The notes under the pieces are model-generated. The model saw only the letters and a program-made list of their open reading frames with translations, had not been told where the DNA came from and did no database searches. A DNA stretch of 61,886 nt from Prolixibacteraceae bacterium (GTDB taxonomy: Bacteria; Bacteroidota; Bacteroidia; Bacteroidales; Prolixibacteraceae): positions 1 through 61,886 of the forward strand of contig DATGYU010000316.1 in the NCBI GenBank assembly GCA_035297625.1. The letters are read 5' to 3'. The position numbers and the translations under genes are program-made. Positions 8,242 to 55,131 of this stretch are shown piece after piece (the first letter of the stretch is position 1; the number at the start of each line of letters is the position of its first letter).

Positions 8242-8334
8242 ACTTTCTCTAAGGTTTCTGTAACCTTTCTGTAACCTTTCTGTAATCTCAATTACAGAAA
8301 GGTTACAGATGAATTACAAATGGGTTACAGATAA
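8242..8334. repeat. Palindromic array of 11-bp units (CTTTCTGTAAC x4 / GTTACAGAAAG x4), copy 1
   Basis: 4+4 inverted 11-mers around a 4-bp centre; inverted near-identical copy at 55039-55131. Confidence 0.85.
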
Positions 8335-8562
8335 TAGCAATCCAGAAAGAATGCATAAGGCGTATCACCTGTCCTTAAAAAAAGATAAGGATGAAGAATT
8401 ATTGATTTTTATTTTTCCTAAAGGAAAAGATATTATCTCCAGCTGATATTGTGGTGATGCGAATACATGAAAGGCTCATTTACTTTCCGGTTAATCTGTT
8501 TACACTAATTTAAAAATGGCTTGATTTAATATTGGAACCATTGTTTCGCAACCTTAAAAGCC

Positions 8563-8570
8563 TACATTTG
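8563..8570 (+). promoter_or_regulatory. -7 box TACATTTG preceding the TPP riboswitch
   Basis: TAnnTTTG consensus just upstream of the aptamer. Confidence 0.55.
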
Positions 8571-8583
8571 TTTTATCAATTTA

Positions 8584-8678
8584 CGCAATGGGGTGCCTGC
8601 CTGAGGAAACTTAGGGGAATGAAAGGCTGAGATCATACCCACCGAACCTGATACGGGTAATGCCGGCGAAGGGATGGC
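8584..8678 (+). ncRNA. TPP (thi-box) riboswitch
   Basis: GGGGTGC...GCTGAGA...ATACCC...GAACCTGAT...GGTAATGCC..GCGAAGGGA hallmark sequence. Confidence 0.92.
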
Positions 8679-8730
8679 GAAAGGGAATTACTTGCCTCAT
8701 TGGTTATTATTAACCATTTAAAAGACAAAA

Positions 8731-11187
8731 ATGAAACGGATTTATTTGACATTGCTCTTGCAATGTATGGTGCTTTGGGGATTTGCCCAATTTACCCTGA
8801 AAGGAACTGTAAAAAGCGAAGAGGGCGAAAAGCTCACCGGGGCTAATCTTACCATTTCAAACCGCTTTGGAGGAACCAGCACCGATGTGAACGGGGCATT
8901 CCAGTTTAAAAACCTGAAAAAAGGAAATTATCAGTTGACCATCTCCTTTGTTGGCTATGAAAAACAGACCAGGGAGGTAATGCTTACCGGTGATCAGACC
9001 CTTGAAATCGTTCTTAAGGAAGAAACCATCATGACTGATGAAGTGCTTGTTTCGGCGATCAGGGCCACGGACAAAACACCGGTTGCCTTTACCACTGTTG
9101 ACAAGTCAGATATTGAAAAGCAAAACATGGGTCAGGATATTCCCTATATACTTTCACTGACACCTTCATTTGTGGCCACTTCGGACGCTGGCACGGGGGT
9201 AGGCTATACCAATTTCCGAATTCGGGGAACGGACCTGAACCGCATCAATGTGACCATCAACGGTATCCCGATGAATGATGCCGAATCGCATGGCACCTGG
9301 TGGGTGGACATCCCTGATCTGGCTGCCTCGACCGATAACATCCAGGTTCAGCGGGGAGTAGGTACTTCAACCAACGGTGCCGCCGCTTTTGGCGGTACCA
9401 TTAACCTGCAGACCACTTCGGTAAACAAAGAAGCTTTTGCAGAATTTAGTTCTTCCGCAGGTTCTTTCGGTACCGTAAGAAATTCTGTTGGCGTTGGTAC
9501 AGGTCTGTTAAAGAAAAAGTTTGCCTTCGATGCCCGTCTTTCAAAAGTAAGCTCTGATGGTTTCATTGATCGCGCTTCCTCTGATTTGAAATCTTTCTTT
9601 GTTTCCGGGGGTTATTTTACGGACAACACTATTTTAAAGGTGAATGTATTTTCGGGGTTGGAAGATACTTACCAGGCCTGGAATGGAGTGCCTTCGGTCC
9701 GTTTAAACAATGACCTGGCCGGAATGCAGCGTTATGCCGATCATTATTTATACACCCAAAAGCAGGTGGATGAAATGATCGCTTCGAATAACAGGACTTA
9801 CAACCTGTATACCTACCCAAATCAAGTGGACTATTACCAGCAGGACCATTACCAGATGATGTTTTCGCACAAGGTAAATGAAGTAATAAATTTGAATGCC
9901 AGCTTGTTTTACACGGCCGGTAAAGGTTATTACGAAGAATACAAGGAAGGTGAGAAATTGAGTGACTACCAGATCACACCTCCCGTCTACGGGGGTGAAA
10001 CGGTTGAAAATTCAGATCTTATCCGTCGTAAATGGCTGGACAATGGTTTCTACGGAATGACATTCTCGGCCAATCAAAAGGCCTTAAGCAGTGATTTTAC
10101 TTTTGGCGGAGGGTACAACGTGTATGATGGCAATCATTTTGGGAAAGTGATCTGGGCGCGTAATGCAGGCAATTCAGAAATCAACCATGAATGGTATCGT
10201 GGCACGGGATTGAAAAAGGACTTCAATCTTTTTGCCAAGTACAGCTATGAACTCTCGGAAGGGCTGAATCTTTTTACTGACTTTCAATACCGGAAAATCG
10301 ATTACGACATTGACGGAACAGATGATGATTTGCGTAACCTGAAGCAAACGCACCACTTTGAGTTTCTCAATCCAAAAGCAGGTATTTCGTATAAGTTGAA
10401 TGAAAAACAAAACCTGTATGCCAGTTTCTCGCGTGCCAACCGTGAGCCTAACCGTGATAATTACGTAGATACCGACCCGCAGGGAAAACAACCTACCTAT
10501 GAAACGCTCAATGATTTTGAAGCAGGGTACAAATACAACTCTTCCAATATTTCTCTAGGCGCCAACGCCTATTACATGCTGTACAACAACCAGCTGATAT
10601 TGACCGGTGAGATCAATGATGTGGGCGCTCCTATCATGACCAATGTGAAAGACAGCTACCGTGCCGGCATAGAGCTGATGGCAGGTGCAAAACTGACCCA
10701 GAAACTAAAATGGGATGTGAACCTGACTTTGAGCAAGAATAAGATAAAGAACTTTTCTGAGTTTATCGATGACTGGGATAACGGCGGACAGGTTGAGAAT
10801 AAACTGGGAACCACCGATATTGCCTTTTCCCCGGACGCCATTGCCAACAGCCAGTTAAGCTGGATGGCCGCAAAAGGAGTTAACGTCAGTTTACAATCCT
10901 TTGCTGTCAGCAAACAGTATATTGACAATACATCAAGTAAGGATCGCAAACTGGATGGTTACTTCCTGAATAACATAAACATGACTTATAGTGTTCCGCA
11001 GAAGTTTGCCAAAGAGTTCAAACTACGGCTGATGTTCAACAACTTGTTTGATACCCGGTATGAAAACAACGCGTGGGTTTATTCCTACATGTATGATGAC
11101 GGGAGCGGCAGGCAACGGTACGCGATGGATGGTTATTTTCCGCAGGCGGGAATTCATTTTTTGGCTGGAATAGATATTAAGTTTTAG
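8731..11187 (+). CDS. TonB-dependent receptor, probable thiamine transporter (OMthi-like)
   Basis: Signal peptide, carboxypeptidase-regulatory-like N domain, plug (RIRG...INGIPMND), C-terminal Phe; directly downstream of a TPP riboswitch. Confidence 0.88.
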   Translation: MKRIYLTLLLQCMVLWGFAQFTLKGTVKSEEGEKLTGANLTISNRFGGTSTDVNGAFQFKNLKKGNYQLTISFVGYEKQTREVMLTGDQTLEIVLKEETIMTDEVLVSAIRATDKTPVAFTTVDKSDIEKQNMGQDIPYILSLTPSFVATSDAGTGVGYTNFRIRGTDLNRINVTINGIPMNDAESHGTWWVDIPDLAASTDNIQVQRGVGTSTNGAAAFGGTINLQTTSVNKEAFAEFSSSAGSFGTVRNSVGVGTGLLKKKFAFDARLSKVSSDGFIDRASSDLKSFFVSGGYFTDNTILKVNVFSGLEDTYQAWNGVPSVRLNNDLAGMQRYADHYLYTQKQVDEMIASNNRTYNLYTYPNQVDYYQQDHYQMMFSHKVNEVINLNASLFYTAGKGYYEEYKEGEKLSDYQITPPVYGGETVENSDLIRRKWLDNGFYGMTFSANQKALSSDFTFGGGYNVYDGNHFGKVIWARNAGNSEINHEWYRGTGLKKDFNLFAKYSYELSEGLNLFTDFQYRKIDYDIDGTDDDLRNLKQTHHFEFLNPKAGISYKLNEKQNLYASFSRANREPNRDNYVDTDPQGKQPTYETLNDFEAGYKYNSSNISLGANAYYMLYNNQLILTGEINDVGAPIMTNVKDSYRAGIELMAGAKLTQKLKWDVNLTLSKNKIKNFSEFIDDWDNGGQVENKLGTTDIAFSPDAIANSQLSWMAAKGVNVSLQSFAVSKQYIDNTSSKDRKLDGYFLNNINMTYSVPQKFAKEFKLRLMFNNLFDTRYENNAWVYSYMYDDGSGRQRYAMDGYFPQAGIHFLAGIDIKF

Positions 11188-11204
11188 TTACTGGATGTTA
11201 GCTA

Positions 11205-11272
11205 CTGGCTACTGGCAAGAGGCTCTGATGAAGCTTTAATGCACAATCAGAGCGTTTTATGCCGGTAGCCGG
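11205..11272. other. Long imperfect hairpin downstream of the TonB receptor (terminator or REP-like)
   Basis: CTGGCTACTGGCA..GCTCTGAT / ATCAGAGC..TGCCGGTAGCCGG. Confidence 0.45.
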
Positions 11273-11381
11273 AAGTCAAAAGCTTAAATCTTCCTAATTG
11301 GATGTTACATCTTTAGGTTTATAATATATTTAATGACAAAATACATGATTTTATTCAAATTGTACAGGTTAAAAAGTTGAT

Positions 11382-11389
11382 TATATTTG
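11382..11389 (+). promoter_or_regulatory. -7 box TATATTTG for the peptide transporter
   Basis: TAnnTTTG consensus about 50 bp before the ATG. Confidence 0.5.
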
Positions 11390-11440
11390 TCGTATTGACA
11401 AATATATAAAACCTAATATTTACTTAATAATCTATGCGCT

Positions 11441-12991
11441 ATGTTTAAAAACCACCCTAAAGGATTATTGGCGGCCGCCCTTGCCAACATGGGAGAACGG
11501 TTTGGCTTTTACACGATGATGGCCATCCTGGTACTTTTCCTGCAAGCCAAATTTGGCTTATCCGGTACCAATGCAGGAATTATCTATTCCATCTTTTATT
11601 TTTCAATTTATATTTTAGCATTTGTTGGAGGTCTGATCGCAGACAAAACAAGGAATTATAAGGGAACCATCCTGACAGGGTTATTTTTAATGGCTGCCGG
11701 ATATTTCCTGATCGCCATACCCACACCGACACCTTCGCCTAATAAAGTGCTCTTTTTGACTTTAACCTGTATCGGGTTATTTATCATCGCTTTTGGGAAC
11801 GGCTTGTTTAAAGGAAACTTGCAGGCTTTGGTTGGCCAGATGTATGACAATGAACAGTACGGAAAATTGAGAGATTCCGGTTTCTCCTTATTCTACATGT
11901 TTATCAATGTAGGGGCTATTTTTGCTCCATTGGCTGCCGTTGGTGTCAGGAACTGGTGGTTGAGTACCCATGGTTTTCAGTACAATGCCGATCTGCCGGC
12001 TTTGTGCCATGCTCACCTGGACGGCTCCATCAACGCAGCAGCTTCTGAATCGCTGGCTCAAATGGCTGCTAAAGTAAGTGCCTCACCGGTAACCGACATG
12101 AGCGTTTTTGCCAGAGATTACCTGAATGTATTTACCACAGGATTTCATTATGCTTTTGGAGTTGCCATATTTGCTATGGCCATATCGCTGATTATCTACC
12201 TGGTGAATAAGAAAAACTTTCCAAATCCCAAAAAAGTGGTTGTTGGCTCAGCTGTAGATCCGGATGCCATTCATATGGATGTGAAAGAAGTGAAACAACG
12301 TTTATCTGCTTTGTTTGCAGTTTTTGGTGTAGCCATTTTCTTCTGGATGTCGTTTCACCAAAATGGATTAACCCTTACCTTTTTTGCAAAAGAATACACG
12401 GATTTAAGTGCACTCAAATTATCGATTGGCAGCTTTACTTTTCAAGGTGGTGCTGAAATATTTCAATCAATCAATCCTTTCTTTGTAGTATTCCTTACTC
12501 CAATCGTATTAGCCTTATTTGGATGGTTGCGCGCAAGAGGAAATGAACCTTCGACACCTAAAAAGATTGCTATTGGGATGGCTATTGCAGCATTAGGGTT
12601 TTTAGTTATGGCTGTCGGCTCGTATGTTAGTAACTTACCTTTACATTCAGCTATCAATCCTGAAGAAGGAGGCGTTCCATTGGCCGATAACTTAAAAGTA
12701 ACACCGTTCTTGCTCATCCTGACTTATTTTGTGCTGACCGTTGCAGAGTTATTTATCAGTCCGCTGGGAATTTCCTTTGTGTCGAAAGTTGCACCTCCAC
12801 AATACCAGGGCGTTATGCAGGGAGGCTGGCTTGGAGCCACTGCCATCGGTAATTCACTGTTGTTCATTGGAGCCGTGCTCTATGAAACCATTCCAATCTG
12901 GATGACCTGGACATTGTTTGTAGTTGCCTGTACCATTTCGATGTTCACCATGATCTTTATGCTTAAATGGCTTGAGAGGGTTGCAAAATAA
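11441..12991 (+). CDS. Proton-dependent oligopeptide transporter (POT/PTR, MFS)
   Basis: ERFGFY, GGLIAD, GNGLFKGN, FYMFINVG and ELFISP motifs. Confidence 0.92.
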   Translation: MFKNHPKGLLAAALANMGERFGFYTMMAILVLFLQAKFGLSGTNAGIIYSIFYFSIYILAFVGGLIADKTRNYKGTILTGLFLMAAGYFLIAIPTPTPSPNKVLFLTLTCIGLFIIAFGNGLFKGNLQALVGQMYDNEQYGKLRDSGFSLFYMFINVGAIFAPLAAVGVRNWWLSTHGFQYNADLPALCHAHLDGSINAAASESLAQMAAKVSASPVTDMSVFARDYLNVFTTGFHYAFGVAIFAMAISLIIYLVNKKNFPNPKKVVVGSAVDPDAIHMDVKEVKQRLSALFAVFGVAIFFWMSFHQNGLTLTFFAKEYTDLSALKLSIGSFTFQGGAEIFQSINPFFVVFLTPIVLALFGWLRARGNEPSTPKKIAIGMAIAALGFLVMAVGSYVSNLPLHSAINPEEGGVPLADNLKVTPFLLILTYFVLTVAELFISPLGISFVSKVAPPQYQGVMQGGWLGATAIGNSLLFIGAVLYETIPIWMTWTLFVVACTISMFTMIFMLKWLERVAK

Positions 12992-13053
12992 AAATTTAAT
13001 AAATTTTATCTAAATAGCCTTATTTAAACGAATTAAGGGTTCACTATTACAAC

Positions 13054-13081
13054 GGGGAGCGGCAATGCCGCTCCTTTTTTT
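13054..13081 (+). terminator. Intrinsic terminator
   Basis: GGAGCGGC / GCCGCTCC stem followed by T7. Confidence 0.85.
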
Positions 13082-13175
13082 ATATAAGGGAATGCTTTAT
13101 GAAATAAAAAATATACTTTTGAAGGAGTAGCTATAAATGCTTCTTTTTATAAGTGAATTACTGAAATTATCGGCT

Positions 13176-13997
13176 ATGAAAATGTACTTCCGTAACGGGG
13201 GATTGTTAATGCTGTTTTCCTTGATTTTGGTTAGCTGTACTGTTCAGCCGGCAAAGAAGGATACTCCTCCCAATTTTCAGCCTTTCTTCGAGGAGTATGG
13301 TGTTAAAGGATGCTTTCTGGTATATGACATGAGAAATGATCACTACCAGATTTATAATTCCAGGCGTTGCGAGGAAGAGTTTCTGCCCGCCTCCACCTTT
13401 AAGATCTTAAATGCCCTGATTGGCCTTGAAACAGGGGTAATCACTGATGATAAAATGGTAATTCCATGGGATGGGGTGGTAAGGTCAGAAGAAATATGGA
13501 ATAAAGACCATACCCTGGCTTCGGCCATGCAGTATTCGGTAGTTCCCTATTTTCAGGAAGTGGCGCGGCGTATTGGACCTGAACGCATGAAAAAATACGT
13601 TGAGGATTGTGATTATGGCCGTATGGATGTCACTGCTGAAACCATTGATCACTTCTGGCTTAGTGGAAAATCAAGGATCACCCCCTGGGAGCAGATGAAT
13701 TTTCTGATTAACTTTTACGACAATAAGCTGCCCTTTTCTGCCGAGCATCTGAATGATGTGAAACAACTGATCATTTTGGAAGAAAACCCCAAATGGATCT
13801 TTCGCGGTAAAACAGGTATGGCCAACCAGGACGGCAGGTTAATCGGATGGTTGATTGGCTATGTGGAAGATTCCACCAATACCTGGCTCTATGTTTGCAA
13901 TGTGGAATCCGATGAATCTAATATGGAAAGGTTCAAAGCAAGCCGTCGTGGCATTACCGAGAAAGTATTCAGGTCAATGGGGCTGATGGTTGAGTGA
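13176..13997 (+). CDS. Class D (OXA-family) beta-lactamase-like lipoprotein
   Basis: PASTFKI, SVV and KTG motifs; lipobox LVSC. Alternative start at 13137. Confidence 0.85.
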   Translation: MKMYFRNGGLLMLFSLILVSCTVQPAKKDTPPNFQPFFEEYGVKGCFLVYDMRNDHYQIYNSRRCEEEFLPASTFKILNALIGLETGVITDDKMVIPWDGVVRSEEIWNKDHTLASAMQYSVVPYFQEVARRIGPERMKKYVEDCDYGRMDVTAETIDHFWLSGKSRITPWEQMNFLINFYDNKLPFSAEHLNDVKQLIILEENPKWIFRGKTGMANQDGRLIGWLIGYVEDSTNTWLYVCNVESDESNMERFKASRRGITEKVFRSMGLMVE

Positions 13998-14090
13998 CAA
14001 TTGTAAAAATAGGCGTTATGAGAACAATAAGGACGCACAAGTTCCACCAACCAATGAACAGTTAAATCATTCAACTATTTTCTCATAGCC

Positions 14091-14663
14091 TTATTTTACT
14101 TTCTCAAATTCCCCTGCTTTTTTATACAAGTTATTAATAAGTAGCTTCTTGAACTGTTTATTACTGGGGTTTATAAGATAATATTTTTCATTGCCCTCCT
14201 TTTGTTCCTTTACAGGGGTGATTTCTTTTACTGAATCCACTTTTAATTCCCGTTGTTCGGAAGCCAGGTTATAAATAGTTAACACATCATTTCTGTATTC
14301 TAAAATATATGCTTCCCATACACTGTCGTAAGCGCTGTTCAAAGGATTTGCAACCTTTTGGCTCAAAACGTAATGGTCATCCAAACGTTTTAGAACAACT
14401 TTACCTGAGGCAAGCGTGCCGGATATTTTCATATCATTTACAGAAGGGTCTGATGATTTTAAATTATACGAATTACGGGTAATAATGAGTGGTTCCTTTT
14501 TAGCATTGCTATCATTATCTTTTTCCATATAGGTACCAATCAGTTCATCAGGGATTTGCTTTAACTCTTTGCCATGCAGGGGCTGAGGATTTTTAAAATA
14601 AAAATCATTACAGGAAGAAAAAATAATAAATACAGCAATGCACAATAGCAGGTTTGGTTTCAT
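14091..14663 (-). CDS. Hypothetical lipoprotein
   Basis: Signal peptide ending FSSC; F.NPQP motif; AT-rich. Confidence 0.75.
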   Translation of the reverse strand: MKPNLLLCIAVFIIFSSCNDFYFKNPQPLHGKELKQIPDELIGTYMEKDNDSNAKKEPLIITRNSYNLKSSDPSVNDMKISGTLASGKVVLKRLDDHYVLSQKVANPLNSAYDSVWEAYILEYRNDVLTIYNLASEQRELKVDSVKEITPVKEQKEGNEKYYLINPSNKQFKKLLINNLYKKAGEFEKVK

Positions 14664-14838
14664 AACATTGACATTAAGTCGTTAAGTAACAAAACAATAA
14701 GATCGCATGACAAAAAAAACCAATAATACGAAAAAGGGTAAATCACACCCCAATTTGCCGCTTCTTTAACTTATACGCATTAATCAGCAGTAAGTTAATT
14801 AAAGAAAGGAAGGATTAGGATTATTTCAAACAAGAAAT

Positions 14839-14968
14839 ATTGAAACTGCATTTAATGAATTGAGCGGATAAAAATCTAAATGCTTATCCGAATAAAAAGA
14901 TTCCGCAGCTCATTTGAATCATTATAAATCCATGCTGATCTGCTCAATTCATTAAATACGGTTTCAAT
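14839..14968. repeat. 130-bp element with 31-bp imperfect terminal inverted repeats (MITE-like)
   Basis: ATTGAAACTGCATTTAATGAATTGAGCGGAT ... ATCTGCTCAATTCATTAAATACGGTTTCAAT, 3 mismatches. Confidence 0.65.
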
Positions 14969-14981
14969 TGTATGAAAATGC

Positions 14982-17969: not shown

Positions 17970-18012
17970 GTTATTTACTATTAGACGATTTACAATTTAC
18001 GCTATGCGAACA

Positions 18013-18120
18013 TTGTGTGCTTTGTGTAATTTCTTAAGCTCTTATATGATTCTACTTATTTTACCACAAAGAGCACAAAGGAGATTACACAAAGAACACA
18101 AAGAACACAAAGAACAAACA
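18013..18120. repeat. CACAAAG-type imperfect inverted/tandem repeat
   Basis: TTGTGTGCTTTGTG ... CCACAAAGAGCACAAAG plus tandem ACACAAAGA. Confidence 0.6.
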
Positions 18121-18139
18121 CACTACTTGAAACTTTGAA

Positions 18140-19435: not shown

Positions 19436-19448
19436 GATATGGATTGAT

Positions 19449-22424: not shown

Positions 22425-22483
22425 TATTTGCAGGTTTAGGTTTGATTATAATCATTCCACCTTGAAAGGCTTGATTATTTATG

Positions 22484-22491
22484 CAAAGCTA
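22484..22491 (-). promoter_or_regulatory. -7 box TAGCTTTG for the glycoside hydrolase cluster
   Basis: TAnnTTTG consensus 60 bp upstream of the ATG. Confidence 0.5.
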
Positions 22492-22780
22492 ATGAATTCA
22501 ACGAAAAACTCTTAAGTAGAATATGAAATAGCTATTCAAATTATAAAAACAGTCCATAGTAAAACAACCTTAAAGTTAACATCACTTATTAATGCGAGTC
22601 AAGGGTTGAAAATAGAAGATATCCACCTATTATCCTGGCAGATAACTGACCGCTTAACAAGGGTTTGGCTGGTAATTTGATCCGATGACCAGCCGTTTAA
22701 ACAGGATTATACTAAATACCAGTAAAATAATAAACTCCTTCCTATAAATAGTAAATCCATTTGGACCAGGTATGCATATA

Positions 22781-22852
22781 AAATACTATTGATATACTAT
22801 TGTAATACTAAAATAAATGTTTTAGTATTACAATAGTATATCAATAGTATTT
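22781..22852. repeat. Perfect 33-bp inverted repeat built from 11-bp units (ATACTATTG..)
   Basis: AAATACTATTGATATACTATTGTAATACTAAAA-TAAATG-TTTTAGTATTACAATAGTATATCAATAGTATTT. Confidence 0.88.
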
Positions 22853-23156
22853 GAATAGCAAATGTGATCCATCTTGGATACTATTTTATTCTGAACTTTG
22901 ATGGTATGCTATGGATTATTTATAGGAACAGATGGATGCCTCAACGACCAGCCATGTTGAGTTATTTTAGCACATCCTGCTAAAACCTTAATTCGCGTTA
23001 TAAATTGTTTTCAGACTGCAGATACTTTAACTAAATACATTTTTATGACAAAAGTCATTAAAAAAAAATAACATATTTTTACAATAATAAAATGATGTTA
23101 GCGATATTTGTAATATCTCTTTAAGCTTTTATATTAAAACTAATAAAACCAAAAAG

Positions 23157-25167: not shown

Positions 25168-25312
25168 GGCTGTCCCAAAACTCTGTGTTTCTCTGTGTAT
25201 TACTCAGTGTGACTCTGTGGTTAGAATTAATGACTGAACCACAGAGTTACACTGAGTTATTCTCAGAGTTTCACGGAGAAAAATTGTTGTAATTTGAACT
25301 TTTTAGACAGCC
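25168..25312. repeat. REP/MITE-like element with CTCTGTG / CACAGAG inverted arms and GGCTGTC...GACAGCC termini
   Basis: ACTCAGTGTGACTCTGTGGTT pairs with AACCACAGAGTTACACTGAGT; outer 7-bp inverted repeat. Confidence 0.65.
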
Positions 25313-35241: not shown

Positions 35242-35280
35242 GACTTTAAGGACCTTAAGGTCTTTAAAGTCCTTAAGGCC
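35242..35280 (+). repeat. 9-bp tandem repeat family, copy D
   Basis: GACTTTAAG GACCTTAAG GTCTTTAAA GTCCTTAAG GCC. Confidence 0.65.
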
Positions 35281-35393
35281 CGGCCTGAAGATTGGGCCAA
35301 TTTCCCTGATTACGGAACACTTCCCCTTCCACACCAAGGGGAACAATATTTTCTTAATTTAGGGGCCGTTAAAAAACCTTCTAATATTATATT

Positions 35394-36803: not shown

Positions 36804-36938
36804 ATAGGAACGCGGATCCAGCGGATTTAGCGGATCAGCACGGATTTATAAAATTGTATATGTAAATTTTATTCAGGTCTAAATTGTATTTTTTTAATCC
36901 GCTATTATCCGTTAAATCCGCTAAATCCGCGTTCCTAT
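36804..36938. repeat. 135-bp REP/MITE-like element with 14-bp perfect termini and GCGGAT 9-mer arms
   Basis: ATAGGAACGCGGAT ... ATCCGCGTTCCTAT, with internal GCGGATNNN and NNNATCCGC repeats. Confidence 0.75.
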
Positions 36939-38549: not shown

Positions 38550-38570
38550 ACTTAATCGATCCGCTTAATG

Positions 38571-38690: not shown

Positions 38691-38895
38691 ATATGGGAAT
38701 GCTTCAGTAATGCTTCTAACCTTCTTCAAACCAAGTTCAAATATAATTCGAATATAATACAAATTAAATTCGAATATAATACATATATTATTCGAACATT
38801 TACGTATTATATATGTATTATATTCGAATTATATATGTATTATAACTGAAAATGGTTAGAAGGGAATTAGAAGAAGGTTAGAAGCAAACCCATAT
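38691..38895. repeat. About 200-bp nested palindrome built from 11-bp units
   Basis: Outer TGCTTCTAACCTTCTT / AAGAAGGTTAGAAGCA; inner 21-bp AATTCGAATATAATACATATA and its reverse complement; ATATAATTCGA / ATATAATACAT units. Confidence 0.8.
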
Positions 38896-39121: not shown

Positions 39122-39138
39122 TGTATATTTTTTCAACA
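39122..39138. promoter_or_regulatory. TGT-N11-ACA operator, second copy
   Basis: TGTATATTTTTTCAACA, about 75 bp upstream of the -24 box. Confidence 0.45.
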
Positions 39139-39213
39139 TTTATACGTTTTATATATTTTGTTCAATTTATTTTAATTAATTGTTATACTGATAGTTAATT
39201 TCATTTAAAAAGA

Positions 39214-39234
39214 TTGGCATTGTAATTGAAATAA
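39214..39234 (+). promoter_or_regulatory. Sigma54-type -24/-12 promoter (TTGGCATTGTAATTGAAATAA)
   Basis: TGGCA..TTG with canonical spacing; the locus encodes a GAFTGA activator. Confidence 0.65.
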
Positions 39235-39308
39235 ACAATTCGACTTTCATATTTTAATTGGAAGCAAGGATTGGAAATATTAAAAGTTCAATTATAAATA
39301 CCTCTATC

Positions 39309-41015: not shown

Positions 41016-41057
41016 AATCAAATTAAACATACAGACTAAAACCCAAAAACCAATATT

Positions 41058-43140: not shown

Positions 43141-43189
43141 AAAAATAAATTAATCAGTTGTCTGCAAAGGCAATTAAAAACTATATACA

Positions 43190-43963: not shown

Positions 43964-44015
43964 TCTGAATTACTATTGCTCATAAATGCAATAATTAATT
44001 GATTAAACAGCACTT

Positions 44016-44053
44016 ACAGCAAAGCGATATTGTCGGTATCGCTTTTGCTGTTT
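44016..44053 (+). terminator. Probable intrinsic terminator after the four-gene operon
   Basis: ACAGCAAAGCGATA / TATCGCTTTTGCTGT stem with a short T run. Confidence 0.6.
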
Positions 44054-44079
44054 GTCCAAAGTGATGACAACAGGCAATG

Positions 44080-44096
44080 TGTTGAATTATTTTACA
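44080..44096. promoter_or_regulatory. TGT-N11-ACA operator upstream of the two-component genes
   Basis: TGTTGAATTATTTTACA closely resembles the reverse complement of 39122-39138 (TGTTGAAAAAATATACA). Confidence 0.45.
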
Positions 44097-44159
44097 AATA
44101 AATTAGGATAGTCTTCCTGTTTTTCATATTTTGCTATTAAATTAGCATTCAGTTAATGA

Positions 44160-45845: not shown

Positions 45846-45858
45846 AAGGAATACTATT

Positions 45859-47199: not shown

Positions 47200-47238
47200 T
47201 TTCTCAGATTCAGTAAGTATCTTTTAAACCTCTTGTGA

Positions 47239-47790
47239 ATGGACCTTGAAAACATCACGTTGATTTCTTTTGGTTATTTTGAGCGGGAACTGCTCGAGAT
47301 GATCATTGAAGATGTGGAGCGTGAGTTTATGCTCCCTGTAAAGATCAGGGAAGGTCATATCGATTTAAGCGAGTTCTATGATCCTGCCCGCAGACAATAT
47401 GACGGCAACAGGCTCATTAAGGAGATCGATTCTATGTATTCCATTGATGGCAATAAAACCCTGGGGCTTTTCAATGTCGACCTGTTCATTCCCATTCTTA
47501 CCTACATATTCGGGCAGGCCTTTCTGGGAGGGCGTACCGGGATTGCTTCCATTTACAGGCTAAGCAATGAATCGTATGGTATTAAACCTGATAAAAAAGT
47601 ATTTCTTGATCGTTTTCGCAAAGAGGTAATCCATGAATTAGGCCATACCTTTGGCCTTATCCATTGCCGCAATATTGGATGCGTCATGCGATCCAGCACT
47701 TATGTGGAAGATATCGACCAGAAAGATTCCATGTTATGCCATCAATGCAAAACAGAACTTGCCAACCTTTACCAGAATATTAACGGCTAA
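47239..47790 (+). CDS. Archaemetzincin (peptidase M54) zinc metalloprotease
   Basis: HELGHTFGLIHC...CVM...LCHQC; RRQY; YIFG. Confidence 0.88.
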   Translation: MDLENITLISFGYFERELLEMIIEDVEREFMLPVKIREGHIDLSEFYDPARRQYDGNRLIKEIDSMYSIDGNKTLGLFNVDLFIPILTYIFGQAFLGGRTGIASIYRLSNESYGIKPDKKVFLDRFRKEVIHELGHTFGLIHCRNIGCVMRSSTYVEDIDQKDSMLCHQCKTELANLYQNING

Positions 47791-47805
47791 TCATTGAGTA
47801 TATAG

Positions 47806-47838
47806 AAAAGGGACAGAAGAAAATTCTTCGGCCCCTTT
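47806..47838. terminator. Probable bidirectional terminator between convergent genes
   Basis: Imperfect AAAGGG..GAAGAA / TTCTTC..CCCTTT stem. Confidence 0.5.
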
Positions 47839-47866
47839 ATATCTGTTTAACTAGTTCTATATCGTA

Positions 47867-48979
47867 TTACTTCTCGATGATACTTTTTACAGCACCTGTA
47901 TTTGGAAAGAATTCCAGTTTATAGTTTCCATCCAGTATATCTTCCGGCACTGGGGCTACGCTGCCAAACTGAGCGACGGCAATGCGTGAAGTGGCCAATT
48001 GGGTGCTTCCATCCAGCAGACGTATGTCAGCCATACCTGGCATACGGTAATACACGCCGCTTTTGCCTGCAAATGGATTATCAGAAGTGCTCAGGGCGCT
48101 TTGTTTGGCCGCCAGGTTATCCGACTTGGTAAGCTCTATCATGATCGGACGGCCCGACAGGTCGGTTTTAGGCAATACCCCGCGATCTTCGCTAAATCGG
48201 AAACACACCTCCCCTTTTACACTCTTTTGTCCGGGAACATAATCAAAGATGAATTCATAGGATTGTTTATCTGATTTGCCAATAAACAAAGCCACATAGT
48301 TTTCTTCCATCTTACCCAACTCCTGAGTCATCACCTCAAAAGATTTACCATCGGGCAGGGGCTCATCATCTGCATTGGTAAGCAAGGCAAACCGGGAATT
48401 GCGAAGGTTAAATATGGTCTCGGCAGCTTCTGCTGCTTTCTGCTCCTGATTTTTGGATACCATCTTAAACTTCTTGGTTGAATCGGCAGGAGAATAATAG
48501 CTCCAGATAGAAAGATCAGTAAACTTGGTTTGCTTGTCTGCATTTTTCAATACAAAAGAACTGGTCTGCACCTGTGAATGATCCACATTAGCGCCTGTAT
48601 TAATACCTGCCAGGATGCCGGATTCAGTTAGGCTGACCATCTGTGCTGCTTTACCCAAAGCTTTATGAACCTGCTCGGGATCCGGTTCACTGAATACTTC
48701 AATTTGAATATCGTCCATACTCCAACGATCCGCATCTGCGGAAGGCGCATTATCGATGCCAAGCATCTTTTGAGCATAGGCAGAGAAAGGTCCATGTACA
48801 AAATGCTCCCGCGTGGCTTTTACATGAATACGGATTCCTGTTTGAGGCAGCGAATACACCACTCCTTCTACCGGGCCAGCGATTGCACCTGAGCCCGCTT
48901 TTTTCTTATCTTCCTTTTGTGCCGTTACTACTGAAACAGTAAAAAGAGCAAGGATTAATGTTAATACTGAAAACTTCAT
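47867..48979 (-). CDS. DUF4831-like secreted protein
   Basis: Signal peptide; GVVYSLP, GPF..YA..MLG, YVALFIG, YYRMPG, AQFG motifs of a Bacteroidales family. Confidence 0.7.
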   Translation of the reverse strand: MKFSVLTLILALFTVSVVTAQKEDKKKAGSGAIAGPVEGVVYSLPQTGIRIHVKATREHFVHGPFSAYAQKMLGIDNAPSADADRWSMDDIQIEVFSEPDPEQVHKALGKAAQMVSLTESGILAGINTGANVDHSQVQTSSFVLKNADKQTKFTDLSIWSYYSPADSTKKFKMVSKNQEQKAAEAAETIFNLRNSRFALLTNADDEPLPDGKSFEVMTQELGKMEENYVALFIGKSDKQSYEFIFDYVPGQKSVKGEVCFRFSEDRGVLPKTDLSGRPIMIELTKSDNLAAKQSALSTSDNPFAGKSGVYYRMPGMADIRLLDGSTQLATSRIAVAQFGSVAPVPEDILDGNYKLEFFPNTGAVKSIIEK

Positions 48980-49073
48980 TGTCCTTTAATTATTTGGTTC
49001 ATTTCTTTCACTGAATGATTTACTTCATAAATCATTCCACTTCTCCATTAAAAACCCAAAAATAACCAAAATA

Positions 49074-50582
49074 TTATTCATGCTGCATAAAAGCATTTCC
49101 TAACTTAGCGATTATGTCCCCGGCAATCAGGGCTTGTTGTCCTAATCGTTGAGCCGCCAGGTCGCCTGCCAATCCATGCAGGTAAACACCAATAATAGTT
49201 GCTTCCTCCGGCGTATAATCCTGGGCCAGCAGCCCAAGGATAATTCCTGTCAATACATCTCCGCTTCCTCCGGTAGCCATTCCGGGATTTCCGGTGCTGT
49301 TAAAAAATACTTTTCCATCGGGCAGGGTAATACAGCTATGAGCACCTTTGCACAGGACAATTACCTTATATTGTGCCGAAAACTGAAGCTGAAGCTGCAG
49401 GCGCTCCCAGGAATTATTTGATGGTCCTATCAGCCTTTCAAACTCTTTGGGATGAGGGGTAAGTATGGCATTTTCGGGCAAAAGATCAATATCCCCCTTA
49501 TTTTCTGCCAGGATATTTAATGCATCGGCATCCAGCACTAGCCTGGCAGGCTTGGTGTACAAAATCTCAAACAAGGCCTGTTGGGTAACAGCCCTTTTAT
49601 CCAGTCCGGGGCCAATGCCAATGGCCGAGTATGAAATCAACTCGGGTACGCTGGAAAATACGATATCTGATGCATCAATGGAAGTCATCGCCTCGGCTAC
49701 CGAGCTCTGAAAGATTTCGTACCCAAGACGGGGAATATGAGCGGTCAATAATCCCACTCCTGCCCGCAAACAGGCTCTGGCCGACAGTACGGCAGCTCCC
49801 ATCTTGCCATAGCTCCCGGCAATTAGCAGTGCATGGCCATAGGTACCTTTATGCGAGAATTTCTCCCGCTTTTTAATCTTTGGGGCTACAAACTCCTTGG
49901 TCAGAAAGGTATAATTGCTTTCTGTTTGCCCGATGGCCTCCGGGTGAAGATCAATAGGCAAGACTTCCCAATTCCCAGTATAAGTAACATTTTCAGGAAA
50001 CAAAAAGCTTAGCTTGGGAAACTCAAAGGTCAAAGTATAGGTGGCTTTTATGATGGCCGAGAGGTCATTGGCGGAATTATCTTCCCCCATAAGCCCACTG
50101 GGAATATCTATGGAAACCACTTTCGCTTTGGATTGATTGATGGCCCTTACAATCTCAGCGGTTAGCCCGGTTAAGGGCCTTGTTAATCCCGAGCCAAACA
50201 GTCCGTCGACAACAATCACATCCTCAGGGATAACTGGGATCTTGGCGCTGGAACCAATTGTTTTGACGACAACCTTGTCTAATTCTATCAAACGGCTAAG
50301 GTTACTGGCTGCATCGCCTTTTAGCTCCTTCCCAAGATCAATTACATATACCGTACATTCAAAACCTGTCCAGGCAAGCATTCGGGCCACTGCCAAGGCG
50401 TCTCCCCCATTGTTGCCCGGCCCTGCAAAGAACCAGAATTGGCGGTAGTTTCCCAAATTATTGATCAGCCAGTCGGCTACCTGCATGGAAGCTCTTTCCA
50501 TTAAGTCGATGGAAGATATGGGCTCCAGTTTCATGGTTAACTGATCGATTTGAGCGATTTGCTGACAGGTAAATAGTTTCAT
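49074..50582 (-). CDS. nnr: Bifunctional NAD(P)H-hydrate epimerase/dehydratase
   Basis: LMERA, GPGNNGGD, DIPSG, HKGTYG, LTPHPKEF, GMATGGSGDVL. Confidence 0.93.
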   Translation of the reverse strand: MKLFTCQQIAQIDQLTMKLEPISSIDLMERASMQVADWLINNLGNYRQFWFFAGPGNNGGDALAVARMLAWTGFECTVYVIDLGKELKGDAASNLSRLIELDKVVVKTIGSSAKIPVIPEDVIVVDGLFGSGLTRPLTGLTAEIVRAINQSKAKVVSIDIPSGLMGEDNSANDLSAIIKATYTLTFEFPKLSFLFPENVTYTGNWEVLPIDLHPEAIGQTESNYTFLTKEFVAPKIKKREKFSHKGTYGHALLIAGSYGKMGAAVLSARACLRAGVGLLTAHIPRLGYEIFQSSVAEAMTSIDASDIVFSSVPELISYSAIGIGPGLDKRAVTQQALFEILYTKPARLVLDADALNILAENKGDIDLLPENAILTPHPKEFERLIGPSNNSWERLQLQLQFSAQYKVIVLCKGAHSCITLPDGKVFFNSTGNPGMATGGSGDVLTGIILGLLAQDYTPEEATIIGVYLHGLAGDLAAQRLGQQALIAGDIIAKLGNAFMQHE

Positions 50583-50597
50583 AGTTTGAAATTTGTG

Positions 50598-50654
50598 TTA
50601 CTGATAGTCTCACTTTAAGTGAGACTATCAGTAAAAAAGTGAGACTATCAGTAA
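50598..50654. repeat. REP palindrome plus half copy downstream of RAYT
   Basis: TTACTGATAGTCTCACTT-T-AAGTGAGACTATCAGTAA (50598-50634), then the right arm again (50637-50654). Confidence 0.9.
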
Positions 50655-51313
50655 AGACTATACTCTCTTGCTCTTTCTTTATGGATTAACTTTCCTTTTC
50701 GGCCTGCAAAATAATCAGGGGCTGAGCTAAATTCCCAGCCAATAATTGATTTGCACAAGCATGCTTTAACAGGATTATTATGGATATACTTAAAACAAAC
50801 AGTAGGGTATTCTTCTCTGGTAAGCACATCATTATCCTGAAGTTCATAATCTTCATAAAACCAGCTAAAATCGTTTTCATCAGGATTCGTTAGGCAACTG
50901 ACTTTGGTGTGTTGCTGAAAGAGTGAGCCCTCCATCTTTTCCTGCTTCTGAATGGCACGGGCGTAGGTGCGGAGCATAATTCCAATGGAGTCGTTGAATG
51001 AACGTAATTTGGGAGGTTTTTTACCAGGGATACTGATAGTCTTACTTGGTGTGCTGATAGTTTTACTGATAGTCTCACTTTGAGTGAGACTATCAGTATC
51101 CTCTTCTTTAACAGCAAGTTTTACAAAATTCACATGCACCATCATATGAAAATGGTTAGGCATTAGCACCCATGCTATTATATCTGCATAAGGCAGAATA
51201 TACTGCTTAATTTTCAATAGGAAAAATAGATAATTTTCTCTGTTGAAGAATATCTTTTGGGAATTATTTCCCCTATTGTAAATGTGAAATAGATGGCCGG
51301 TCTCGAAATACAT
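50648..51313 (-). mobile_element. REP-associated tyrosine transposase (RAYT; IS200/IS605 Y1 HUH family) CDS
   Basis: FHIYNRGNN..IF, LMPNHFH (HUH), YIHNNPVKA, WEFSS; flanked by REP palindromes. Confidence 0.88.
51029..51100. repeat. REP palindrome and partial copies inside the RAYT coding sequence
   Basis: TACTGATAGTCTCACT-TTG-AGTGAGACTATCAGTA at 51064-51098, preceded by two degenerate left arms. Confidence 0.88.
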
Positions 51314-51385
51314 TTTTCATAAAAGATACAAAGAAAATGTGAGAATTGCCAATTGGGAATATAAAAAATTAAGGATAGTATACTG

Positions 51386-51451
51386 AGAGATACTGATAGT
51401 CTCACTTGGAGTGAGACTATCAGTATCTCTTGGAGTGAGACTATCAGTATC
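51386..51451. repeat. REP palindrome plus half copy upstream of RAYT
   Basis: AGAGATACTGATAGTCTCACT-TGG-AGTGAGACTATCAGTATCTCT, then TGGAGTGAGACTATCAGTATC. Confidence 0.9.
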
Positions 51452-51457
51452 CCTTGC

Positions 51458-52732
51458 TTACTCTATCCTCTCAAACCCGCAATACGGTACCAGCACTTTG
51501 GGAATCCGAATACCTTCTGGTGTCTGATTATTTTCAAGCAGTGCTGCCATGATGCGTGGCAAAGCCAGCGCGCTTCCATTGAGCGTATGGGCAATCACCG
51601 GCTTTTTGGTTGCCTCATCGCGGTAACGAAGCTTTAGGCGATTGGCCTGGAAGGATTCAAAATTGGATACAGAACTTACTTCCAGCCATTTCTCCTGGGC
51701 AGCCGAGAATACTTCAAAATCATAAGTCAGGGCAGAGGTAAAACTCATATCGCCCCCGCAAAGACGAAGGATGCGGTAAGGCAGTTCCAGTTTTTCCACC
51801 AACCCGGTAACATGGGCTACCATCTCATCCAGTAACTGATATGAATTTTCAGGATGGGCAATCTGCACAATTTCCACCTTATCGAACTGGTGAAGGCGGT
51901 TTAGTCCGCGAACATCCTTTCCATACGACCCTGCCTCACGACGAAAACAGGCACTGTAAGCAGTATTTTTGATGGGAAGTTCCTTGGCTTCCACGATCAC
52001 ATCCCTGTAAATATTGGTTACCGGCACTTCAGCCGTTGGAATCAAATACAGATTGTCGGCAGTAGCATGATACATCTGTCCTTCCTTATCGGGAAGCTGT
52101 CCGGTGCCAAAACCTGAATCTTCATTGACCATGTAAGGAGGCTGAATCTCCAGGTATCCTGAATCGCGCGCCTCATCCAAAAAGAAATTGATCAGAGCAC
52201 GTTGCAGCCGGGCCCCTTTACCTTTGTACACAGGAAAACCTGCACCGGTAATTTTAACGCCCAGTTCAAAATCGATGATATCATACTTTTTGGCCAAATC
52301 CCAGTGGGGAACACTGTTTTCGGGCAGAGCAGGTATTTCACCCATTCTTTTTACCACCAGGTTATCCTCGGGAGTACGGCCTTCAGGCACCAAATCGGCT
52401 GGAAGGTTGGGCAGTAAAACCTGTAGATTGAATATATCCTGGTCAATACGGGCAAACTCTTCATCCAGCTGCCTGATGGTATCTTTTATTTCGGTAGTTC
52501 TGTTTTTAGCGGCCTCGGCCTGGTCTTTGTTACCGTCGCGCATGAGCAATCCGATTTCCTTGGAGATTTTATTCATCTCCGCTTTTAGCTGATCCGCCTT
52601 TGCCTGGGTTTCGTTTTTACGTGTTGACAATCCGGTAATTTGCTGAACGATGGCAGCGGCATCAAAATGTTTCTTTTTAAGTTTAGCCACTACCAATTCC
52701 GGATTTTCCTGTATAAATTTCAGATTGAGCAT
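51458..52732 (-). CDS. serS: Serine--tRNA ligase
   Basis: LIPTAEVP, CFRREAG, RLHQFDKVE, EVSSVSN, HTLNGS. Confidence 0.97.
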   Translation of the reverse strand: MLNLKFIQENPELVVAKLKKKHFDAAAIVQQITGLSTRKNETQAKADQLKAEMNKISKEIGLLMRDGNKDQAEAAKNRTTEIKDTIRQLDEEFARIDQDIFNLQVLLPNLPADLVPEGRTPEDNLVVKRMGEIPALPENSVPHWDLAKKYDIIDFELGVKITGAGFPVYKGKGARLQRALINFFLDEARDSGYLEIQPPYMVNEDSGFGTGQLPDKEGQMYHATADNLYLIPTAEVPVTNIYRDVIVEAKELPIKNTAYSACFRREAGSYGKDVRGLNRLHQFDKVEIVQIAHPENSYQLLDEMVAHVTGLVEKLELPYRILRLCGGDMSFTSALTYDFEVFSAAQEKWLEVSSVSNFESFQANRLKLRYRDEATKKPVIAHTLNGSALALPRIMAALLENNQTPEGIRIPKVLVPYCGFERIE

Positions 52733-52774
52733 TTTCGGTAATTTTTATATGTTTGAGACCGACAAATTTATAAC

Positions 52775-52810
52775 AAAAAAAATCTCCTGCCTTCATGAAA
52801 GCAGGAGATT
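52775..52810 (-). terminator. Intrinsic terminator of rplU-rpmA
   Basis: AATCTCCTGC / GCAGGAGATT stem followed by a T-tract on the minus strand. Confidence 0.85.
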
Positions 52811-52836
52811 ATTCAATACATATCTTTTTATTCGTA

Positions 52837-53109
52837 CTAGTTAATATCTGTAGTAACTACAGGATCAACATTAACGAATGATTTGTTGTCGCCTTTTTTC
52901 TTGAAAACAACAGTTCCATCCACCAAAGCAAACAAGGTATGATCTCTACCCATACCAACATTTACACCTGGGTGGTGTGAAGTACCTCTCTGGCGAACAA
53001 GTATGTTACCAGCTTTTGCAGTCTGACCGCCGTAAATTTTAACGCCGAGTCGCTTGCTTTCCGATTCGCGTCCGTTCTTGGAACTACCGACACCTTTCTT
53101 ATGAGCCAT
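52837..53109 (-). CDS. rpmA: 50S ribosomal protein L27
   Basis: [22 protein letters not shown]. Confidence 0.98.
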
Positions 53110-53127
53110 TGTAAATTCTTTTTAATG

Positions 53128-53439
53128 TTATCCTAATACTTCTTCAATTTGAACTTTGGTCAGGTATTGACGATGACCATTCATTTTCTGGTAGGTCTTT
53201 CTTCTTTTCTTTTTGAAGACCAACACCTTATCGCCCTTTACATGTTCCAGAACGGTAACCTTAACACTGGCACCATCTACAAGGGGAGCTCCAACTTTCA
53301 CATCGCCGTCGTTGTCAACCAGTAAAACCTTGTCGAAAACAACAGTTTCGCCTTCTGCATTTGAAAGACGATGAACATAAATCTTCCGGCCCTTTTCAAC
53401 TTTCATCTGCTGACCGGCAATCTCTACAATTGCGTACAT
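53128..53439 (-). CDS. rplU: 50S ribosomal protein L21
   Basis: [11 protein letters not shown]...FKKKRRK...GHRQ. Confidence 0.98.
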
Positions 53440-53521
53440 TTCAGTATATTTAATATTTCATCCGGCAGGCGGGAAACCATGGATTTGCCGCTTATAGGGC
53501 CTGCTCGAAACTTTCGGATTG

Positions 53522-53529
53522 CAAAAGTA
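53522..53529 (-). promoter_or_regulatory. -7 box TACTTTTG for rplU-rpmA
   Basis: TAnnTTTGC consensus about 80 bp upstream of the ATG. Confidence 0.6.
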
Positions 53530-53882
53530 GATATTTTTAAGTGATCACCAAAGCTTTACCACACTTTTTCTGATTTATTTACACAGAATCAATTTTGAAA
53601 TAAAATAATTCAAGCTGCTGGCAACTGGCCTGTGGTAAAAACCTGTTGCTCCAATCCTACACTATTGCTAATCGAAACAGGTGCTGCCTGCACCCAGTTG
53701 CTAACAGCACCTATCCCTTTCATCATTCAATTATCAAACCTCCGGATTTTCTGAGGCTGGCACCTTTCATTTAGCCTATTTTTATCAATCCCTAATAAAC
53801 CCTTAAAGATAAAGGCGAAAAATTCAGGCTGAATGTATAAAATTCTTATATTTGTTTTCCTTGAGGATCTATTTTATTATAA

Positions 53883-54485
53883 ATGCTAAAAGTAAAACTC
53901 AACATACTAGGACTGTCTGTAAGCCAGTCACAATCAGGCGCCTATGCATTGGTGCTTGCAGAAGAAAGCGGCGAGCGAAGAATCCCTATTATCATAGGTC
54001 CTATAGAAGCGCAGTCCATCGCCATTCAGTTGGAGGGTTTAAAACCACCCAGGCCACTGACGCACGACCTGTTTAAACAAGTAGCATCGGCCTTCGATAT
54101 CTACATCTCGGAAATTATCATCTACAAACTGGAAGAGGGGATTTTCTATTCTGAACTGGTCTGTATGAAAGACGGGAAACAGGTTATCATCGATTCACGC
54201 ACCTCCGATGCCGTTGCTTTGGCCCTTCGCTTTGGATGCCCCATTTATACTACGGAAGATATTTTGGAAAGGGCTGGCATTGTTATCGAGTTTGAAAACG
54301 AACACGAACATTCCGAGGAAGAATGGCATCAGCCACCTGCTGAAGAGCCCACCAGGGGAAAATATGAATACGGCAAATACACCTCTTCTGAATTAAATGA
54401 AATGCTCAACAATGCGGTCAAAGATGAAGACTACGAAAAAGCGTCTGCCATCCGCGATGAGATCAACCGCCGTAGAAAAGAATAG
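53883..54485 (+). CDS. Bifunctional nuclease family (DUF151) protein with C-terminal UVR domain
   Basis: IPIIIG..EAQSI, RPLTHDL, DSRTSDAVALA, AV..EDYEKA..IRDEI. Confidence 0.9.
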   Translation: MLKVKLNILGLSVSQSQSGAYALVLAEESGERRIPIIIGPIEAQSIAIQLEGLKPPRPLTHDLFKQVASAFDIYISEIIIYKLEEGIFYSELVCMKDGKQVIIDSRTSDAVALALRFGCPIYTTEDILERAGIVIEFENEHEHSEEEWHQPPAEEPTRGKYEYGKYTSSELNEMLNNAVKDEDYEKASAIRDEINRRRKE

Positions 54486-55038
54486 CATCCCTGGTTATTC
54501 CATACCAGGCGAAAGACGCTTTATCCCAAGACAGTTTTTATTGGGTCGTTAGCGACTATTGCTTTATCAGATCAAGTTAAAAACCTGTATAGAGAAAGTT
54601 TCTGGCCTTCCGGCTACTGCCGTCTACCCTCCTCTTCTCCAATCAAAAATAGCCTGTTTTAGGGGTAATGACCAATTTTACAATTTTAATTCCTGGATTT
54701 AAAGGTTAGGTTTAATAAAGTGTAATACTCAGAAACACAACAAATAACCGAAAGGCTTATCTATCGCTCTAACCATTGCACATACAAATTTTTAAAACCC
54801 CATTTTGCCCAGGCATACTTCCGTAGAAATGGCAAGAAAGTAAAATCGGGCCAGATTGCCTTATTCTGAAAACAGGAATGGGACCATCAGTTTGAATTTT
54901 CAGTCCTATTATTTTTACTATGGTGGACTCTATCATAAACAGGCTATTAAGCTGAAGCACTTAAAGGGTGTATTCTGATTTTTATCTTTCAATGCCAATT
55001 ATGGTATTCTTCTGTTCTAATATACCTAAAAATTCCTG

Positions 55039-55131
55039 TTTTCTGTAACCTTTTAGATACTCATCTGTAACCTTTCTGTATCCGATATTACAGAAAGGTT
55101 ACAGAAAGGTTACAGAAACCTTAGAGAAAGT
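55039..55131. repeat. Palindromic 11-bp-unit array, copy 2 (inverted relative to 8242-8334)
   Basis: Reverse complement matches copy 1 at 82 of 93 positions by manual alignment. Confidence 0.85.

Follow-up and report, generated by a model that had tools for sequence, protein, structure and literature searches.

The window, the whole stretch of DNA analyzed here (61,886 nucleotides), contains four arrays of 11-bp units that belong to three families. Two of them, copy A and copy B, are members of the same family; the arrays at 22762–22871 and 38711–38886 are palindromic as well. The arrays and their immediate neighbors are arranged as follows.

7455..7886, minus strand: Hsp20 gene, to the left of copy A and divergent (context only)
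8059..8540, no strand assigned: site of copy A, a stretch without an alignable counterpart at the orthologous position
8200..8377, plus strand: entire phased region of copy A, each arm of which includes about four degenerate outer registers; limits based on the family profile
8244..8333, plus strand: inner array of copy A with four 11-bp units, a 6-bp spacer (8286–8291) and four inverted units
8579..8691, plus strand: TPP riboswitch to the right of copy A, preceding a TonB-dependent receptor gene at 8731–11187 (context only)
22762..22871, no strand assigned: gene-less array built on the different 11-mer of a sister family; in genome G000, this 11-mer is found upstream of the DUF6266 paralogues C92 and C169
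38711..38886, no strand assigned: gene-less composite array from another sister family, made of units that also stand upstream of the DUF6266 paralogue C74 of G000
53883..54485, plus strand: bifunctional-nuclease/UVR-domain gene, to the left of copy B (context only)
54485..55437, no strand assigned: site of copy B, a stretch without an alignable counterpart at the orthologous position
54996..55173, minus strand: entire phased region of copy B; extent taken from the family profile
55040..55129, minus strand: inner array of copy B with four units, a 6-bp spacer (55082–55087) and four inverted units
55443..56729, plus strand: nucleoside:H+ symporter gene, to the right of copy B (context only)

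Other repeats are present in the window. Five copies of a 39-nt palindrome (50595–51449) flank and interrupt an ORF of 221 amino acids (50648–51313) that has no Pfam match and is neighbored by an NAD(P)HX repair gene on one side and serS on the other; palindrome and ORF are possibly another repeat-plus-gene cassette. Intergenic palindromes or arrays of 7- to 10-nt units are found at 1849–1892, 3421–3454, 18002–18112, 25181–25278, 35242–35281, 36804–36938 and 58179–58258. Such short-unit families are abundant throughout the genome, with 437 tandem calls of period 7. The Rfam DUF805 RNA lies at 59948–60016, just upstream of an ORF of 120 amino acids without a Pfam match at the threshold used. 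This RNA and the TPP riboswitch are the only Rfam matches above the gathering threshold in the window. Neither copy A nor copy B matches an Rfam family, in agreement with the preliminary description of this DNA, which knew no named family for them.

That description had reported 8242–8334 and the reverse complement of 55039–55131 as a near-identical pair of 93 bp, and comparison of the two sequences confirms this (first 45 nt identical, 11 mismatches in 93 positions). Both copies are indeed located in the middle of long gaps, with distances from the center to the adjoining ORFs of 399 and 440 bp for copy A and 596 and 356 bp for copy B. The interpretation as a special inverted pair 47 kb apart, on the other hand, is rejected, as both copies are closer to other members of their family. 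Copy A differs at 7 positions from each of two other copies, and copy B at 5 positions from another copy, compared to 11 between A and B. A and B are members of a family of about 55–60 copies, and their relative orientation and distance carry no meaning. The suggested check of orientation against the replichore gave no bias relative to contig GC skew (11 versus 10 of 21 scorable copies). The flanks had been called unrelated. This does not apply to the first ~44 bp outside each arm, where the 11-bp phase is kept throughout the family.

The copies are not an assembly artefact. In run X3, from an independent study, contigs spanning 8026–8270 and 8261–9400 (copy A) as well as 54413–55069 and 55103–55800 (copy B) join unique flanks to both halves of each copy, and neither dyad is crossed by any single contig. 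The summed depth on the arrays is 20 to 40 times that of the flanks, as for a repeat.

An iterated unit profile identified 51 strict arrays in the 4.6-Mb genome (G000) and none in a shuffled genome. Two of these arrays, on C249 and C437, appear to be a single copy present on contigs whose ends overlap. An arm profile gave 14 more clusters, comprising one array already counted, five of another family and eight further copies of the A/B family (two of them partial), so that about 55–60 copies are scattered over the genome. The layout consists of 4+4 units of 11 bp around the dyad TGTAA-N6/7-TTACA. This dyad anchors 50 of the 51 arrays, with a spacer of 6 bp in 27 and of 7 bp in 23. Conservation amounts to 80–100% in the innermost unit and declines outward. 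Beyond the four units, the outer tail still has a lag-11 autocorrelation of 0.49 in pooled arms (other lags ≤0.08). In the far flanks the value is 0.03, and phasing is gone past ~100 bp. The element is therefore best described as ~175 bp of phased registers around one dyad.

In the 46 complete copies, the arms of one copy resemble each other slightly more than they resemble the arms of other copies (identity 0.71 versus 0.68 and 0.83 versus 0.81; p = 0.001 and 0.003 by permutation). The two arms also carry fixed differences from each other. As the excess is only slight, most of the symmetry results from both arms matching one consensus, a pattern that is expected for a double-stranded binding site. 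With simple ORF calls, all of 57 copies are outside ORFs of at least 120 amino acids, and 17 of the 49 copies scorable on both sides are located between convergent genes (412 of 2902 gaps genome-wide; odds ratio 3.3, p = 2e-4; these neighbor orientations rest on the same simple calls). Half-arrays bracketing an ORF were not found among the 64 arm-profile clusters of G000.

Arrays of this kind are not restricted to one unit. In G000, 413 of 1906 tandem-repeat calls have period 11 and several further array families are built on unrelated 11-mers; at least eight unrelated 11-mers share the same layout.

The ORFs adjoining 225 loci with 11-bp repeats in G000 were clustered. DUF6266-like genes, coding for proteins of 205–215 amino acids, form the largest paralogue group at these loci, which accommodate 12 of the 20 paralogues. 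Among seven paralogues compared with the Pfam model PF19781 (DUF6266), three score above the cut-off, two score below it and two do not match. The array-linked protein P0001 passes the gathering cut-off narrowly (24.2 versus 23.4 bits). The gene of C300 has an array of the A/B family (6-bp class) upstream with its dyad 54 bp ahead, and the related gene of C268 has a copy of the 7-bp class 670 bp upstream. Copies A and B are gene-less copies of an array that is sited directly upstream of one DUF6266 clade. The linked genes are located outside the window and were therefore beyond the view of the preliminary description. For DUF6266-like genes from several genomes, an 11-bp periodicity of at least 0.7 is present upstream of 25 of 48 genes (47 distinct) and downstream of none of the 48, compared to 45 of 2819 background genes with such a periodicity upstream. 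The upstream 11-mer differs between paralogues. At L117, L120 and L121, all upstream of DUF6266 genes, a second clear 11-bp repeat forms the outer registers, so that two unit types are combined in one array. A worn form of such a second unit type may be what is seen in the degenerate tails of copies A and B.

The genes with arrays of the A/B type form a single clade with a support of 100/100 (C300 and C268 of G000, L046 and L053, both from genome G045, and L076). This clade is apart from seven canonical-type PF19781 members, none of which reached the periodicity threshold. In a metagenome scan of 15 loci, an A/B-type dyad array is found upstream of all eight close homologues (seven distinct; 46–61% identity; one with a T/A variant of the dyad) and of none of the seven distant homologues. 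No homologue of the clade was detected in viral contigs. In 12 loci, the clade genes have no common partner gene beside them, except for the orthologous pair of G000 and G045; apparent shared neighbors at the metagenome loci turned out to be antisense frames of DUF6266 itself. In G045, the C300 gene is still accompanied by its two neighbors (75–83% identity), in contrast to the C268-type gene.

In seven genes the dyad is located 47–110 bp ahead of the start codon. A TAnnTTTA box at a fixed offset in the gene-side arm is present in 6 of 10 gene-linked arrays, that of the C300 gene not being among them, and in none of 98 gene-less arms. The Bacteroidetes -7 consensus is given as TAnnTTTG in the accessible text of PMC7366714; the array box ends in A where the published consensus ends in G. 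Owing to this resemblance, the array likely overlaps the promoter of the linked DUF6266 gene.

The gene-less copies are not accompanied by remnants of the gene. A six-frame profile search of G000 gave 20 near-full and 3 partial matches to DUF6266, only C268 and C300 of which are near a copy, and no decayed gene next to a gene-less copy. In G007, which has no copy of the A/B family, none of the 27–30 DUF6266-like matches exceeds 40% in its closeness to P0001, in keeping with the gene link. Against this link, 18 exact-pattern sites are present in G032 (84% complete), in which no gene of the array-linked clade was found, and one in G057, which has no match to the clade profile. A Mantel test of proteins against units is not significant (rho 0.08, p 0.13; 32 of 47 genes); for nearest-neighbor proteins only, the units agree at 8.0 versus 6.1 of 11 bases. 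Given the physical linkage of a gene and the array before it, common descent would suffice to make the two co-vary.

The AlphaFold model of the DUF6266 protein (pLDDT 87) consists of an N-terminal half with three or four strands and three helices and a C-terminal β-sandwich. The latter is fibronectin-III-like according to a fold search (best Z 8.2), is acidic and contains most of the near-invariant residues. For the N-terminal half no known DNA-binding fold was matched (best Z 4.3 in the PDB, best E 0.23 in a viral library). A weak likeness to one filamentous-virus capsid protein (Z 3.8, r.m.s. deviation 5.2, 54 aligned residues) was discarded as evidence, being tied with unrelated proteins. 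The N-terminal 95 residues are basic in all 48 proteins (median net charge +10, range +5 to +13); a hydrophobic N-terminal stretch is present in 5 and an HUH motif in none of them. This charge, together with the position of the arrays, suggests that the N-terminal half binds DNA. A homodimer prediction scored 0.31, with the mark at 0.42. The DUF6266 profile matched 3414 clusters at 50% identity. NCBIfam gave no match, PHROGs one weak family of undescribed function and a PDB sequence search nothing under E 0.04; the look-alikes from an atlas search are all unnamed and all under 0.9. No function is described for DUF6266, and the literature searched, in which subscription papers are underrepresented, does not mention it.

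Of 49 further genomes from the genus, three contain the exact pattern (36 sites in G045, 18 in G032 and one in G057). It was found in none of 250 genomes of a family-wide draw, to which these three did not belong. The preliminary description had called for a search for empty sites. G045 and G057 turned out to be empty at both orthologous positions, and the 36 copies of G045 lie elsewhere. At site A, 77 bp in G045 correspond to 483 bp here, which is an upper bound for the DNA gained with copy A; at site B, 108 bp in G045 and 83 bp in G057 correspond to ~950 bp. A contig of run X14 skips 8006–8573 and so lacks the insert of copy A. The orthologous sites of G032 were not scorable due to a contig break at A and a run of N at B. 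In G007, site A is occupied by a different 11-mer family and site B by an unrelated ORF. Among 10 distinct G045 sites, two have a syntenic pair in G000; neither of these held the A/B family and one held a sister family. Hence the same intergenic site is filled by another array family in two cases, L093 of G007 versus 8059–8540 and L145 of G045 versus C55:22504–23240 of G000. These fillings suggest insertion hot spots or replacement of arrays. In three species, one array has stayed at the same position, behind rpoC plus a small gene (C97:4612 in G000, L100 in G032 and L004 in G057, the last being the only exact-pattern copy of that genome). Therefore not all copies are recent.

Many of 20 cores inspected in G045 share flanks well past the array. 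One subfamily has a sharp end ~145 bp from the dyad and is ragged on the other side, and a second one shares flanks of 215–270 and ~140 bp. In the right flanks of L130–L149, the sharp end is located ~135–150 bp from the dyad at one conserved motif, often with an ATG soon after. We take this motif to resemble the 3' half of the Bacteroidota integron-cassette site. It was not found near any of 46 G000 copies. In L135 and L141 of G045 the two arms have been made more alike, as template switching would do. The G000 copies share almost no flank and therefore look older.

As the preliminary description stated, there is no transposase nearby: none of the seven Y1-transposase loci of G000 adjoins a copy. 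In four genomes, 30 of 38 PF01797 (Y1 transposase) loci were examined, including all seven of G000. A related array was seen at one of the 30, on one side and ~300 bp before the Y1 transposase match (G032 L018:1166–1254), plausibly by chance. A RAYT partner of the A/B family was not found at these loci. An IS end or MITE was also dismissed, because terminal inverted repeats are absent from the outer ends and conservation peaks centrally and fades outward. In G000, whose relatives are distant (65–80% identity in genes), neither fixed ends nor a target duplication were definable, and no mobilizing enzyme for the arrays was found. The signs of non-autonomous spread proposed earlier are nevertheless present, namely about 55–60 copies, empty orthologous sites, no Rfam match and no adjoining Y1 transposase.

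Most likely, the arrays at A and B are candidate docking sites on double-stranded DNA for a DUF6266 protein. The dispersed phased array for protein loading, one of the options of the preliminary description, is supported as the type of element. In the proposed mechanism, a pair of DUF6266 molecules would nucleate on the TGTAA-N6/7-TTACA dyad via the basic N-terminal half. Loading of additional protomers would proceed outward at one per 11 bp, or about one per helical turn, with four protomers per arm on the good units and about four on the degenerate ones, giving a coat of ~175 bp. The array copy before the gene would serve as an autoregulatory operator, as parC does for ParR. Recognition would be specific, with a separate 11-mer for every paralogue, which would result in several parallel array codes per genome. 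The gene-less copies would have spread as the array was copied together with variable flanking DNA, either by host recombination or by an enzyme acting in trans. They would persist mainly where harmless, which could account for their excess between convergent genes. We assign a probability of roughly 0.55 to this reading as a whole, i.e. operator-like docking arrays of a cognate DUF6266 paralogue with outward loading, autoregulation and gene-less copies spread by copying. A bolder generalization is speculative and rather doubtful: DUF6266 might be an undescribed class of sequence-programmed DNA-coating proteins, each of which polymerizes outward from its dyad over ~175 bp of its own 11-mer, represses the gene that encodes it and drives or licenses the copying of its array to dozens of places in the chromosome. 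If so, a genome would contain at least eight orthogonal protein–array codes, and a gene-plus-repeat system like REPIN–RAYT would exist on the basis of a non-transposase protein with a basic and a fibronectin-III domain.

Several alternatives were considered. The arrays could be REPIN-like non-autonomous elements, with DUF6266 either mobilizing them or acting as an adaptor to bring in a host enzyme. This agrees with the single gene clade found for a repeat family, the many gene-less copies and the empty orthologous sites, as well as with the G045 subfamilies with common flanks, one end sharp and the other ragged; furthermore, the C300 gene keeps both neighbors in G045 as domesticated RAYT genes do. 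On the other side, the 48 proteins lack the HUH motif, have their near-invariant residues mostly in the fibronectin-type half and are accompanied by the array on one side of the gene only, and fixed ends or target duplications are not definable in G000. We consider this explanation unlikely. It is less probable still that another protein binds the arrays and that DUF6266 is the passenger of a virus-like or island module whose promoter array was amplified. Linkage alone would then explain the co-variation, and the lack of a recognized DNA-binding fold would fit, but the 12 clade loci offer no shared partner gene apart from the orthologous G000/G045 pair, and the basic N-terminal half is conserved in 48 of 48 proteins.

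The remaining explanations are all highly improbable. The invariant inverted arms around a variable spacer would suit core sites of a tyrosine recombinase (11-bp arm, 6–7-bp spacer, 11-bp arm) with accessory repeats for host Xer enzymes. This geometry presumably resembles dif, and flank modules are shuffled among the G045 copies. G000, however, has only two phage-integrase-family matches, on contigs without a listed copy, and two recombinases could not read at least eight unrelated 11-mers of one layout. Slightly less credit is given to sites of host chromosome architecture (strong gyrase sites or wrapping signals, for example) that selection would maintain between convergent genes. The symmetry, the length of ~175 bp, the 11-bp phase and the convergent-gap excess (odds ratio 3.3) would fit. 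Yet the gyrase motif is a degenerate pattern of GC content and not a set of exact 11-mers, the family was found in only 3 of 49 other genus genomes and in none of 250 family-wide, and the DUF6266 link is left unexplained. Least probable is conservation for the sake of the hairpin, be it as a structured RNA or a cruciform, both listed in the preliminary description, or as a terminator. A strong hairpin is predicted on each strand (folding z-scores of -6.8 to -9.2; none of 200 shuffles equally good), the copies are in excess between convergent genes, and arms of one copy match slightly but significantly better than permuted ones. This match is only 2 points above that of arms from different copies, the arms have fixed differences, Rfam gives no match and pairing does not explain the phased degenerate tails.

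The arrays give DUF6266 a concrete candidate substrate, and several paralogue–array pairs in one genome constitute a built-in control of specificity. The docking reading, if true, would provide the first testable function for a large uncharacterized protein family. If binding proves to be paralogue-specific, a new family of orthogonal DNA-binding modules for Bacteroidota would be at hand and a large share of the intergenic repeats of Bacteroidota would be explained. The sharp- and ragged-ended subfamilies of G045 make the spread of enzyme-less arrays testable.

The A/B arrays are apparently one member family of a gene-plus-array system that has not been described so far. No description was found in the article texts searched, among which subscription papers are few; a repeat catalogue in a supplement could list these arrays. 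Known systems share individual properties with the arrays. The E. coli gyrase motif has symmetric flanks with a period of 10.75 bp, and BIME-2 repeats are gyrase sites (PMC6379681, accessible text). Motif and arrays have in common a symmetric site of 130–175 bp with flanks of ~11-bp periodicity. In the gyrase motif, a degenerate signal of base composition surrounds a 4-bp cut, whereas the A/B array has an exact 11-mer code that is clade-specific and linked to a gene family.

REP/REPIN sequences with their RAYT (TnpA-REP) genes, REPtrons and TIRtrons (PMC3116915, PMC3733652, PMC6006769) resemble the A/B family in several respects. In both, a genome contains dozens of palindromes in its intergenic regions, each repeat family has a single cognate gene clade, positions are lineage-specific and copies are in excess between convergent genes. 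The A/B arrays differ from them in that no HUH/Y1 transposase adjoins, the array stands upstream of the gene only and the arms consist of phased tandem units with little hairpin-specific conservation. A GTAG/CGTC foot beside a REP hairpin of 20–40 bp is not conserved in the column profile of aligned arms.

The parC site of plasmid R1 consists of 5+5 repeats of 11 bp split by 39 bp, contains an autoregulated promoter and binds about one ParR dimer per repeat, according to the accessible text of PMC2241845. Two sets of 11-bp repeats over ~160–175 bp by the promoter of a small gene (here a promoter-like box) are common to both. One protein unit per repeat and autoregulation are shared in the model proposed here only. 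In contrast to parC, which occurs once per plasmid beside an actin-like ATPase, the A/B family has about 55–60 copies among ordinary chromosomal genes, its arms are inverted about a 6–7-bp spacer and several families exist in parallel. DUF6266 has no likeness to ParR, and inspection by eye of the neighbors of three loci revealed no actin-like or Walker-type partition ATPase. The system would work most like parC/ParR and is distributed like REPINs, while belonging to neither.
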